Positions 1 to 40,550 of a DNA stretch of 41,441 bases are shown one piece after another. The stretch is taken from the IMG/VR virus record IMGVR_UViG_2541047739_000012; one strand, given 5' to 3'. Positions within the stretch are counted from its first letter, which is position 1. Every line of letters starts with the position of its first letter. The stretch comes from a virus (taxonomy: Duplodnaviria; Heunggongvirae; Uroviricota; Caudoviricetes). Made by a program: the position numbers and the translations under genes. The notes beneath the pieces are model-generated. The model did not search any database and was not told the origin of the DNA. It worked only from the letters and a program-made list of their open reading frames with translations.

Positions 1-585
1 TTACATTGTGTCTGGTTCTTCCGGCCACTCAATATCAGGTGCAGTTGATGTATCAACACGGTTCAGCAACACCCGATACTTCTTCCATGCTGCCAGCAAC
101 GACGCCTCTTCTTCCGTTGCGATCTCCAGATCCACAGCATCCTGAAGCGGCGCTATATGCTCACTGGCTACCTGCATCAGGCTGTTTTTTGTTTCTTCCG
201 CCTCCCGGATCCGGAACAGTTTTTCTGCTTCTGCATCTTTCACCCAGGCTGTGCCGTTCCACTTCTGAAACTCCCCTTCCGGGGATAACCAGGTGACATT
301 TTCCGGTAATGGGCCAAGTTCAGAAATAAATAACGCGTCGCCGGAAGCCACGTCATAGACGGTTTTACCCCGATGGTCTTCAACGAGATGCCACGATGCC
401 TCATCACTGTTGAAAACAGCCACAAAGCCAGCCGGAATATCTGGCGGTGCAATATCGGTACTGTTTGCTGGCAGACCTGTATGAGGCGGAATGTATGCGT
501 CACCTTCACCAATAAATTCATTAGTTCCGGCCAGCAGATTATAAATTGTTATGGTCCGTGGTTGTTCACTCATTCTGAATGCCAT
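1..585 (-). CDS. tfa: tail fiber assembly protein (Tfa)
   Basis: Complete 194-aa ORF (stop at 1-3, ATG at 583-585); start overlaps the upstream stop as TAATG; sequence recalled as lambda Tfa-like; sits directly after the side tail fibre gene. Confidence 0.85.
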
Positions 586-29211: not shown

Positions 29212-29283
29212 CGGTTGTCTCTGCTGGCGCAGCAGGTGCCAGTTGTTCAGGCTGGCGTGCGAATTGTAAACCAGAATGCCAGG

Positions 29284-29507: not shown

Positions 29508-29900
29508 CTACTGCCCTGTTTTAACGAAGTTTTTAAAGGAAACAACTGCCTGATAGGGGTTTGGTTGACAGCCAAACATATTATCGCAAAAAGGCTTGAT
29601 GAAAATTCTTGAGGATCCATCTTCATTTGGCATTTTACTCACTTGATAAGCGAGGAATGGACTATTTGGAGAGGGATTATAAGTGGAAATTAGCGTGTCT
29701 GTCGCCGTTTGAATTTTCCATGAGGAATTATTAGCCAACCAGAATTGCGCTCGTTTCCAATAAAAGTCACATTGCTTTTCATCATTACATGTTAGTGGCT
29801 TCATTGCTTCTGCTTTCAACGCTGGATCGACCTTTGCTGCACACCCTCCCAACATTACTGTTGCAATCATTACACCTGCGACTAAAACAAGTTTCTTCAT
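29508..29900 (-). CDS. lipoprotein (moron)
   Basis: 130-aa ORF with signal peptide and lipobox (MKKLVLVAGVMIATVMLGGC), several Cys; strong SD GGGAG; bracketed by terminator-like hairpins and AT-rich intergenic DNA. Confidence 0.7.
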   Translation of the reverse strand: MKKLVLVAGVMIATVMLGGCAAKVDPALKAEAMKPLTCNDEKQCDFYWKRAQFWLANNSSWKIQTATDTLISTYNPSPNSPFLAYQVSKMPNEDGSSRIFIKPFCDNMFGCQPNPYQAVVSFKNFVKTGQ

Positions 29901-30043
29901 CTCCCTGCCCCATCAATAAAAGTTCGGTTCTCTAATAACTAGAGTTAATCAACGGAAAAAACGCCGAAGCGGGTTAAGTGCGGGTGCGTTGAGGATGCCT
30001 GACACATCAGAGGTGGCGAGGGATTTCTCCCCCGCCTGGTCTC

Positions 30044-30199
30044 TTACTCCTCAGGTTCGTAAGCTGTGAAGACAGCGACCTCCGTCTGGCCGGTTCGGAT
30101 TCGTACCTCGCAGAGGTCTTTCCTCGTTACCAGTGCCGTCACTATGACGGTTAAACAGATGACGATCAGGGCGATTAACATCGCCTTTTGCTGCTTCAT
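30044..30199 (-). CDS. hok: Hok/Gef-family type I toxin
   Basis: 51-aa frame MKQQKAMLIALIVICLTVIVTALVTRKDLCEVRIRTGQTEVAVFTAYEPEE; single TM plus the conserved RKDLCEV motif. Confidence 0.85.
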   Translation of the reverse strand: MKQQKAMLIALIVICLTVIVTALVTRKDLCEVRIRTGQTEVAVFTAYEPEE

Positions 30200-30256
30200 A
30201 GCCTGCTTCTCCTTGCCTTTCGGCACGTAAGAGGCTAACCTAGATTTGCCGTTCAT
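30044..30256 (-). CDS. mok: Mok-like leader frame (in-frame N-terminal extension of hok)
   Basis: 70-aa ORF from ATG 30254-30256 encompassing hok in frame, as for chromosomal mok/hok pairs. Confidence 0.55.
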   Translation of the reverse strand: MNGKSRLASYVPKGKEKQAMKQQKAMLIALIVICLTVIVTALVTRKDLCEVRIRTGQTEVAVFTAYEPEE

Positions 30257-30490
30257 AGATTGAGCCTCAGATTAATGTTAAGCGTCTTGCAGGACGCGTA
30301 ATGTTAACTGGGGCTTTTCTCTATCTGCCTTTTGGTGTTCATGCCTGAGACAGATAGCCTCAAGCACCCGCTGCAATTCTACTTAACTCTCCTTTTCCCG
30401 CAAACCGTTTTTATCCCCAGCGGCAAATCGAATACACCACCAGCGCCACAGCCATTGCGATTCCTGCCGTTGTAAATGCCTCAGGCCAGG

Positions 30491-31006
30491 TCATCGTAAA
30501 ACATCCTCCACGCTTATCAGTCCATTTCGTTTCAGGTAATCCATCGCCATCTCCGGTAATTTGCAGTCTGGATTAGCTTTTTTCAGTTGACTGACCAGTC
30601 GTTTAACCCACATTGTTAATTCGCCAACCTGATTACTGGATGCTAGTGGATTGTCGGCTTTACCCAGAATGACAGCACAGCAGGCCTCTTTGAGTACCCA
30701 ATCAACAGCATCTTTCCATGCTCCTGTTTCGACTGGTGGATTCTCACGCTTTACCTGTTCATAAAAGCGCACGGCTTTAACCAGTCCTTCTGATATCACA
30801 GGGACTGGCGGGGTAGTGAATAAGGCCTGAATCTCATAGCCCGGCCTGTCGTTGCACCCCTCTTTTGTCGGTACATATTTCCAGTCACCAACCCACATCT
30901 TCTCCTGAAAGTCCGTAACGCCTTTTTTCACGTAGCGATATCGCCATGCAACTGGTTTTGCCTGCCCTGCCGTTTCATGCCCTTCCTGATAATTAATCTC
31001 GCTCAT
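30491..31006 (-). CDS. hypothetical early protein
   Basis: 171-aa ORF (MSEINYQEG...), ATG overlaps the upstream stop (ATGA); no motif recognised. Confidence 0.55.
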   Translation of the reverse strand: MSEINYQEGHETAGQAKPVAWRYRYVKKGVTDFQEKMWVGDWKYVPTKEGCNDRPGYEIQALFTTPPVPVISEGLVKAVRFYEQVKRENPPVETGAWKDAVDWVLKEACCAVILGKADNPLASSNQVGELTMWVKRLVSQLKKANPDCKLPEMAMDYLKRNGLISVEDVLR

Positions 31007-35671: not shown

Positions 35672-36224
35672 TAGCTAACCAACGAAGCTAAGAGTTCTCC
35701 ACGGGTGAGGTGGAGTGCGTGCGCCGGACACGGGTGAGCATCCGGCACTGACAGTTTACTGAAAGGATATTTCCATGAAAAGTCAGACCATAACGCGAAA
35801 GCGCACGGCGAGGTAGCTGGTTCATAGATAGCCTGTCGTTAAATTTTCGTCGACCGTGCGCTTCCGGTTGTGGCACTCCGCGAAATGGCGCGGCGGTAAG
35901 TATGGCGGGGTTATTCCTTCCCCGTTGAGGACACCGGGTTGTCAGGTTGACCATACGCTTAAGTGACAACCCCGCTGCAACGCCCTCTGTTATCAATTTT
36001 CTGGTGACGTTTGGCGGTATCAGTTTTACTCCGTGACTGCTCTGCCGCCCTTTTTAAAGTGAATTTTGTGATGCGGTGAATGCGGCTAAGCGCACGCGGA
36101 ACAGTTAAAACCAAAAACAGTGTTATGGGTGGATTCTCTGTATCCGGCGTTAATTGTTAACTGGTTAACGTCACCTGGAGGCACCAGGCACCGCATCACA
36201 AAACTCATTGTTGAGGGCGCGATA

Positions 36225-40460: not shown

Positions 40461-40550
40461 TGGCGGAGAGAGGGGGATTTGAACCCCCGGTGGAGTTGCC
40501 CCCACTCCGGTTTTCGAGACCGGTCCGTTCAGCCGCTCCGGCATCTCTCC
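40461..40550 (-). tRNA. serU: tRNA-Ser (anticodon CGA), host gene serving as prophage attachment site
   Basis: 90-nt minus-strand cloverleaf with long variable arm: acceptor GGAGAGA, anticodon arm CCGGT-CTCGAAA-ACCGG, T-loop TTCAAAT, CCA; its 3' end faces the integrase 53 bp away. Confidence 0.85.

Follow-up and report, generated by a model that had tools for sequence, protein, structure and literature searches.

The hok and mok genes and their prophage setting

The window, by which is meant the whole 41,441-nucleotide stretch analysed (IMG/VR virus record IMGVR_UViG_2541047739_000012), carries on its minus strand a hok toxin gene of 51 amino acids at positions 30044 to 30199, beginning at an in-frame ATG at 30199. 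This gene is contained in a mok frame of 70 codons (30044 to 30256, minus strand) that the list of open reading frames gives in frame with hok and that has the layout of the annotated mokW and mokC. The toxin is matched by Pfam HOK_GEF (PF01848) at 3e-23 (81.6 bits against a cut-off of 22) and by PHROG 251, 'MokW-like host killing', at 7.7e-33, and the 70-aa query matched the NCBIfam Hok models below their curated cut-offs. The 51-aa Hok is residue for residue the HokD (RelF) protein of E. coli K-12, and a 99.8%-identical locus carries the hokD annotation in RefSeq. The sequence-only reading of this DNA, which had placed a 51-aa Hok/Gef frame inside a 70-aa in-frame Mok, is thereby supported by the frame list and by both protein family matches.

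The Shine-Dalgarno sequence read for hok is AGGAG at 30209 to 30213 (minus strand), where the homology with K-12 hokD begins. That of mok is GAGG at 30265 to 30268 (minus strand), 8 nt 5' of the mok ATG, and both motif and position are family-wide. The position of the mok start is the same in 45 family members, and the mok Shine-Dalgarno sequence and a frame overlapping hok are present in the window too. The distance between the mok and hok starts is 56, 57, 58 or 59 nt across these 45 loci from several genera, so that mok can be in frame 0, +1 or +2 relative to hok and in some loci has 19-20 codons only. What is conserved despite this drift of frame is the mok start site together with the position of the Sok promoter, whereas the 19 N-terminal residues of Mok, which include the hypervariable patch described below, are poorly conserved. 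The keeping of the start but not of the frame or the product fits a role of mok translation in coupling. The window, phage 933W and hokC have the 57-nt spacing, which puts mok in frame; since mokC and mokW are also in frame and the family varies, the in-frame Mok was rejected as an unusual feature. No insertions or deletions were found inside the mok/hok frame among 67 unique close relatives, and the decay in relatives that the sequence-only reading had named as grounds for abandoning it was thus not seen. The codon TAC of Tyr47 with the G that follows it (30058-30061, minus strand) forms UACG, the TadA A-to-I editing motif (Tyr to Cys), and according to a preprint the hokD mRNA is edited at that cysteine position (bioRxiv 10.1101/2025.08.07.668861).

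In its setting, an E. coli lambdoid prophage of the Qin-like type, the locus has replication/nin-like genes on one side and rem-ydfU-rusA-Q on the other. A 551-nt query (29950-30500) found matches in 4948 of 5426 complete E. coli genomes, with a median of two places per genome and a maximum of 11, annotated as hokD. The best matches are 99.5-99.8% identical and lie in lambdoid prophages with the gene order ydfABC, cI/cro, replication genes, small genes, hokD, rem-like gene, DUF968/YdfU, RusA, Q, tRNAs and lysis genes, with which the window is collinear. In the phage collection 107 records match, among them the Stx phages 933W and VT2-Sakai at 92% identity. In most relatives the homology is limited to the cassette, from about 29957 on the downstream side to about 30386 on the upstream side, with many different flanks beyond. 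It had been suggested from the sequence that in Qin-like prophages hok usually follows relBE. The counts speak against this, as a relE-hokD junction occurs in 1166 of the 5426 genomes and the leader (30200-30390, at least 80% coverage) in 4238, a number to which paralogous hok loci may contribute. The relBE-hokD arrangement of K-12 is thus the minority, 5'-truncated form.

Several other elements of the window can be mentioned here. Upstream of the cassette an ORF of 27 codons encoding a hydrophobic peptide, MTWPEAFTTAGIAMAVALVVYSICRWG, lies at 30411-30494 (minus strand), starting with an ATG that shares bases with the stop (ATGA) of the 171-aa gene upstream of it. It has no annotation in the RefSeq neighbour. 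By tblastn it is found in 88 phage records at 63-96% identity, which makes it probably a real small gene, and it is kept in 933W with several synonymous changes; it likely encodes a small membrane protein. Downstream, between hok and the rem-like gene, a 130-aa ORF (29508-29900, minus strand) has a lipoprotein-like signal (…MLGGC) and belongs to PHROG 16082; K-12 Qin lacks it, and the homology there is taken up again at 29228. The remaining RNA genes are an IS009 RNA (44-242, minus strand, 219 bits), the DicF sRNA (35999-36050, plus strand, 76.7 bits), a cluster of four tRNAs downstream of Q (24950-25259, minus strand; Gly, Thr, Lys and a Met/Ile-like CAT) and a tRNA-Ser(CGA) at 40461-40550 (minus strand), possibly a mark of the prophage end. 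In the species-representative genome set, HokD-like (96-100% identical) or R1-type hok genes were also met on contigs labelled Veillonella, Acinetobacter, Xanthomonas, Ferruginibacter, Streptomyces and Oscillibacter (loci L096, L106, L113 and L148-L150). These are probably contaminating enterobacterial or plasmid DNA.

Sok, the hok leader and the alternative folds

The Sok promoter occupies 30213 to 30241 on the plus strand, with the -35 hexamer TTGCCT at 30213-30218, a 17-nt spacer and the -10 hexamer TAACCT at 30236-30241. The hexamers and the spacer are as proposed from the sequence at the outset, and the coordinates lie one base lower than the 30214-30242 then given. As the promoter is weak when compared with the consensus (7/12), its support comes from homology, that is from its position and its identity to the sokW promoter of phage 933W/Sp5, which it equals base for base. 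The alignment shows no difference between the window and 933W from AGGTTAGCC up to and including the hok start, so the proposed promoter is the sokW promoter that has been validated by mutation: primer YO-421 changes AGGTTA on the hok strand, which is TAACCT on the Sok strand, and antitoxin activity is lost (PMC8621323). Both hexamers are invariant in the 67 unique close relatives, and TTGnnn-17/18-TAnnnT is found at the same place in nearly all 45 family members, which span several genera and include R1. A generic scan of 29800-30700 for sigma-70 promoters and intrinsic terminators reported nothing. This null result was rejected as evidence against the locus, because the hok and Sok promoters have 7-8 of 12 consensus positions and the terminator stem has 3 bp.

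The predicted Sok antisense RNA is about 71 nt long (30248 to 30318, plus strand), with coordinates transferred from the annotated sokW and sokC. Both of these start at nucleotide 9 of their own mok frame, so that in the window Sok should begin at 30248 and finish close to 30318. When folded, the 75 nt of 30248-30322 form a single-stranded 5' tail of 9 nt, GCCGUUCAU, a long interrupted hairpin and a U-rich end, with a free energy of -31.5 kcal/mol and z = -5.3; none of 200 shuffled sequences was as stable. The hairpin spans 30257-30320 and has an apical stem GCGUC/GACGC at 30282-30297, so that the short hairpin noticed before at 30266-30282 is merely part of the 5' arm of this longer one. An 18-nt insertion common to the window and 933W, and absent in hokC and R1, lengthens the Sok hairpin. 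At the level of sequence the locus thus has a predicted cis-encoded Sok that would cover the mok initiation region, with its promoter between the mok and hok starts.

On the opposite strand the promoter read for the hok/mok mRNA lies at 30376 to 30403 (minus strand), with a -10 TAGAAT at 30376-30381, a weak -35-like TTGCGG at 30398-30403 and a 16-nt spacer. The -10 is 6 nt upstream of the 5' end of GGGUGCUUGAGG and is kept in relatives; the -35 region varies, and the promoter is below the threshold of the generic scan. The predicted full-length mRNA of about 414 nt (29956 to 30369, minus strand) has its 5' end placed by homology, namely by the start of the Rfam model and the alignment with 933W, hokC and R1, and its 3' end is uncertain. 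Comparison with Rfam covariance models, the check proposed together with the initial reading, gave a match to RF01794 of 112.4 bits against a gathering threshold of 59 (E = 6e-25), the model being covered in full (1-157) at 30194-30369 on the minus strand. Because this match runs in the sense of hok and stops at the hok AUG, the family models the hok leader, and Sok is the complement of part of it. Under the name of the family, 'sok antitoxin', the strand of the match taken at face value would mislabel the orientation of the antitoxin.

The leader had been drawn from 30257 to 30490 (230 nt) and called non-coding. It measures 113 nt (30257-30369) when the mRNA start is set by homology at about 30369, and the longer interval holds the hok promoter at 30376-30403 and the conserved 27-codon ORF. 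The longer leader was rejected on account of this homologous 5' end, of the ORF and of the break of cassette homology near 30386 in most relatives. The interval first given for the whole locus, 30044-30490, also has to be extended on the other side, as it leaves out the 3' untranslated region with fbi (29982-29994) and the terminator (about 29956-29973).

Within the mRNA (all on the minus strand) the elements of a folding switch can be located. The translational activator tac, GGGUGCUUGAGG, is at 30358 to 30369; ucb, or anti-SD (AAGCCCC), is at 30310 to 30316; dcb (AGCCUC) is at 30231 to 30236; and the fold-back inhibition element fbi, CCUCAACGCACCC, is at 29982 to 29994. The full-length RNA (30369 to 29952, 418 nt) has a minimum free energy of -160 kcal/mol with z = -5.4. 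In this fold tac (30369-30358) pairs with fbi (29994-29982) over 12 bp, and the AGCC of ucb (30315-30312) pairs with the mok Shine-Dalgarno region (30266-30263). When the RNA is trimmed just 5' of fbi, tac pairs instead with AAGC-CCC (30316-30310), and GAGGCU, containing the mok Shine-Dalgarno sequence (30268-30263), pairs with AGCCUC of dcb (30236-30231) with a stem-loop on top. This stem-loop of the refolded mRNA (30237 to 30261) would be the Sok target, with an apical loop, ACGGCAAA (30252-30245), to which the first five Sok bases are complementary. Both the closed pairing (ucb with the mok Shine-Dalgarno region) and the open ones (tac with ucb, and mok Shine-Dalgarno with dcb) were recovered as minimum free energy structures, which are thermodynamic predictions, and the folds match the closed/open model for R1 as summarised in PMC9841398. 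The target loop of the window has no YUNR motif and several sister variants have one. The YUNR U-turn motif was reportedly described for R1 by Franch et al. in 1999.

The pairing of tac with fbi is also visible in comparisons. The core of tac is conserved in 49 of 80 species-level loci. In 45 non-identical loci the best partner of tac in the 3' untranslated region lies 44-57 nt past the stop codon, and there is covariation from U-A to C-G, GGGUGC occurring with GCACCC and GG(G)CGC with GCGCC(C). The genera represented are Escherichia, Shigella, Kluyvera, Photorhabdus, Pantoea, Buttiauxella, Leclercia, Enterobacter and Klebsiella. A simple search for the tac motif missed the Photorhabdus and some other loci, which restricts the covariation set to these 45.

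The intrinsic terminator (29956 to 29973, minus strand) is weakened and reads CGC-UUCG-GCG followed by six U. In K-12 and most relatives the stem is CCCGC-UUCG-GCGGG; the window has GCGUU. The change of GG to TT at 29960-29961 cuts the stem from 5 to 3 bp, a form shared by 21 other loci, and makes the 3' end of the mRNA and the kinetics of its processing uncertain. Read-through into the downstream 130-aa ORF is possible. Nevertheless, the weakened terminator is unlikely to be inactivating, since the 933W locus is functional and has no such terminator.

The locus can therefore be regarded, with a probability of roughly 0.93, as a complete hok-mok-sok type I cassette of the hokD/hokW type, about 450 bp long (about 29956-30404, minus strand), with a predicted R1-like switch. 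The initial description, a type I hok/mok toxin locus carrying an antisense promoter of the Sok kind, is supported by the RF01794 match, the HokD identity, the 92% identity to 933W, the sokW promoter, and the tac/fbi and ucb/dcb folds. This kind of cassette has already been described and its closest phage relative has been characterised experimentally.

A hypervariable patch at the mok start

A patch of 20-24 nt around the mok start (30243-30266) encodes three things at once: the 5' tail of Sok, codons 2-5 of mok, and the upper stem of the target hairpin with its apical loop. Its variation was followed in 106 sequences, namely 105 IMG/VR cassettes collected through an exact 33-nt anchor adjoining the patch and the copy of the window; this sample replaced an earlier one from IMG/VR that was biased to the Mok N-terminus of the window. 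Among the 106 cassettes nucleotide diversity is 0.24-0.29 at 30247-30266, whereas values under 0.05 prevail in the coding region and, anchor excluded, in most of the leader. At least 15 variants of the patch occur, 15 being the count for mok codons 1-5, the stretch that doubles as the Sok tail sequence. The variants of this tail include that of the window, GCCGUUCAU, that of 933W, GUUCAGCAU, and GUGAGACAU. All 16 hairpin variants remain 38 nt long, with stabilities between -10 and -14 kcal/mol. Three copies with three different patches are present in each of two genomes, E. coli ECMA0423 and S. flexneri SFBU1023, a number too small to be statistically meaningful.

The variation is compatible with selection for distinct Sok-target specificities in cassettes that share a host genome, as far as this small sample of sequences allows such an inference. 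A bolder suggestion, which we put forward tentatively and consider rather doubtful, is that the patch is a diversifying 'specificity patch' that would set the initial recognition between Sok and its target, so that the cassettes of co-resident prophages might avoid cross-repression. Such specificity may be likened to the loop differences that define incompatibility groups of antisense-controlled plasmids. Were specificity indeed set by the patch, the tolerance of E. coli genomes for as many as 8-11 related cassettes would be accounted for, and the patch would bear on antisense strategies against Sok, such as the one in PMC1635323. No paper describing the patch was found in the literature search, and a hypervariable patch inside an otherwise conserved cassette can be taken as a mildly new point.

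Mechanism, role and related systems

The mechanism proposed for the cassette follows the paradigm of plasmid R1 and the 92%-identical hokW-sokW; its elements are present in the window and its dynamics are inferred from these two systems. A stable mRNA of about 414 nt starting at about 30369 would be inert, as its 5' tac would pair with the 3' fbi and ucb would mask the mok ribosome-binding site. Slow trimming of the 3' end would take off fbi, after which tac would pair with ucb and the mok Shine-Dalgarno sequence would move into the hairpin with dcb, whose apical loop would be the entry site of Sok. Sok, an unstable antisense RNA of about 71 nt predicted to be transcribed from TTGCCT-17-TAACCT with a start at about 30248, would bind the loop with its 5' tail and block translation of mok and of the coupled hok, and the duplex would be degraded, partly by RNase III. 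Should Sok synthesis stop, as on prophage induction, loss of the element or shut-off of transcription, mok and hok would be translated, and the 51-aa HokD would insert in the inner membrane and depolarise or kill the cell.

For hokW-sokW much of this has been reported. HokW is toxic, the 51-aa protein alone being sufficient (Takada et al. 2021, PMC8621323). In the same work (PMC8621323) both hokW and sokW RNAs were detected by northern blotting, sokW expressed from its own promoter neutralised HokW, a mutation of the -10 abolished protection and sokW in trans restored it, and RNase III and Hfq were found to contribute. With mitomycin C sokW disappears and HokW is then found in the inner membrane in a RecA-dependent way, and deletion of hokW-sokW halves the release of Sp5 (PMC8621323). 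By analogy, the role of the cassette in the window would most likely be to aid lysis and phage release after induction, and a role in stabilising the prophage is possible.

The same machinery could have another main role, that of an addiction or abortive-infection (superinfection exclusion) module and not of a lysis helper. The hok/sok of R1 stabilises plasmids and excludes T4, hok genes are about four-fold enriched in prophages (bioRxiv 10.1101/2025.08.07.668861), and the many different flanks of the cassette are like those of a mobile 'moron'. However, hok genes are not enriched beside defence systems (bioRxiv 10.1101/2025.08.07.668861), and in the only direct test of a prophage copy hokW-sokW raised phage release two-fold, with no growth phenotype of the lysogen (PMC8621323). 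Such a role is accordingly conceivable, with the odds leaning clearly to the other side. It is improbable that the 70-aa product, an N-terminally extended Hok, is itself the relevant toxin and mok more than a frame for coupling. The shared frame of mok and hok (57 nt) in this lineage does mean that ribosomes starting at mok must make a 70-aa Hok fusion. Nevertheless, a mok frame that is 0, +1 or +2 across the family, with 19-20 codons in some members, and an N-terminus of 19 poorly conserved residues that takes in the hypervariable patch argue that selection acts on the translation of mok and not on its product; moreover HokW alone, without the extension, is toxic (PMC8621323).

There is likewise little likelihood that the cassette is a silent relic, with its parts intact but never activated and without function, as has been argued for the chromosomal hok loci of K-12. 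Those loci have been described as inactive (PMC1635323), and earlier tests of the chromosomal hokA, hokB and hokC, summarised in a preprint, found neither post-segregational killing nor activation by rifampicin (bioRxiv 10.1101/2025.08.07.668861). The allele of the window itself has the weakened terminator and a target loop lacking YUNR. Against this, all regulatory elements are present and fold as expected, the frame is free of indels and the Sok promoter invariant in the 67 unique relatives, and the genomes and phage contigs that retain the cassette number in the thousands. In addition, loci of the ECOR collection are reported to be active (PMC1635323), and the 92%-identical hokW-sokW is active and affects phage release (PMC8621323).

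Among known systems the closest is hokW-mokW-sokW of the Stx2 phage 933W and the Sakai prophage Sp5, with 92% nucleotide identity over 95% of the 551-nt query. In the 933W record (AF125520, Plunkett annotation) mokW has 70 aa in frame, hokW 51 aa, and sokW is an antisense RNA of 71 nt, which is the same geometry. The two loci have in common the Sok promoter, dcb, the hok Shine-Dalgarno sequence, the first 44 residues of Hok, the 18-nt insertion, tac and fbi. The window, having this insertion and the TTGCCT/TAACCT hexamers, belongs to the hokW-sokW subfamily. The differences are at the C-terminus of Hok (TAYEPEE in the window, VDYESEK in HokW), in mok codons 2-5 and the Sok 5' tail (GCCGUUCAU against GUUCAGCAU), in the 3' flank, which diverges directly past fbi, and in the neighbours, a nin-like region upstream of rem/ydfU/Q in the window and another set of small genes in 933W.

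Plasmid R1 hok/mok/sok (parB) shows the same order of elements, namely tac, ucb, mok Shine-Dalgarno, Sok target, dcb, hok Shine-Dalgarno, hok and fbi, with the Sok promoter at the same position (TTGCGC-17-TATCCT) and the same two alternative folds. Its Hok is 43% identical to that of the window, its mok is in frame +1 and starts 58 nt before hok whereas that of the window is in frame at 57 nt, and its context is a plasmid and not a prophage. Sok of R1 has 64 nt with an 11-nt tail (PMC1635323), compared with about 71 nt and a 9-nt tail predicted here, and its architecture of a tail and a stable stem-loop (PMC1635323) is like the Sok fold of the window. The hokC(gef)/mokC/sokC locus of the E. 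coli chromosome has an in-frame mok of 69 aa, a sokC start at mok nucleotide 9 and the same tac; it is without the 18-nt hairpin insertion, and its Hok is 82% identical to that of the window. No fbi was found in the hokC locus of K-12 because IS186 interrupts it downstream.

The hokD locus of the cryptic K-12 prophage Qin is 98.5% identical over 29956-30213, which comprises the hok Shine-Dalgarno sequence, the coding region, fbi and most of the terminator, and it shares with the window the downstream neighbourhood of the rem-ydfU-Q type. As the match is confined to this segment, the K-12 copy is 5'-truncated: relBE replaces everything upstream of 30213, and tac, ucb, the mok start, the Sok -10 and the Sok transcript are missing. 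The K-12 arrangement, with relE directly 5' of hokD and without mok, Sok and tac, is not that of the window, where the full leader is present, together with the additional 130-aa lipoprotein-like gene downstream and the weaker terminator. The locus adds nothing new on the mechanism of hok/sok, and its value is in annotation, since RefSeq labels the 51-aa hokD gene only and leaves mok, Sok and the leader unannotated. The well-known hokD of K-12 is the truncated exception, and the window holds the complete form.
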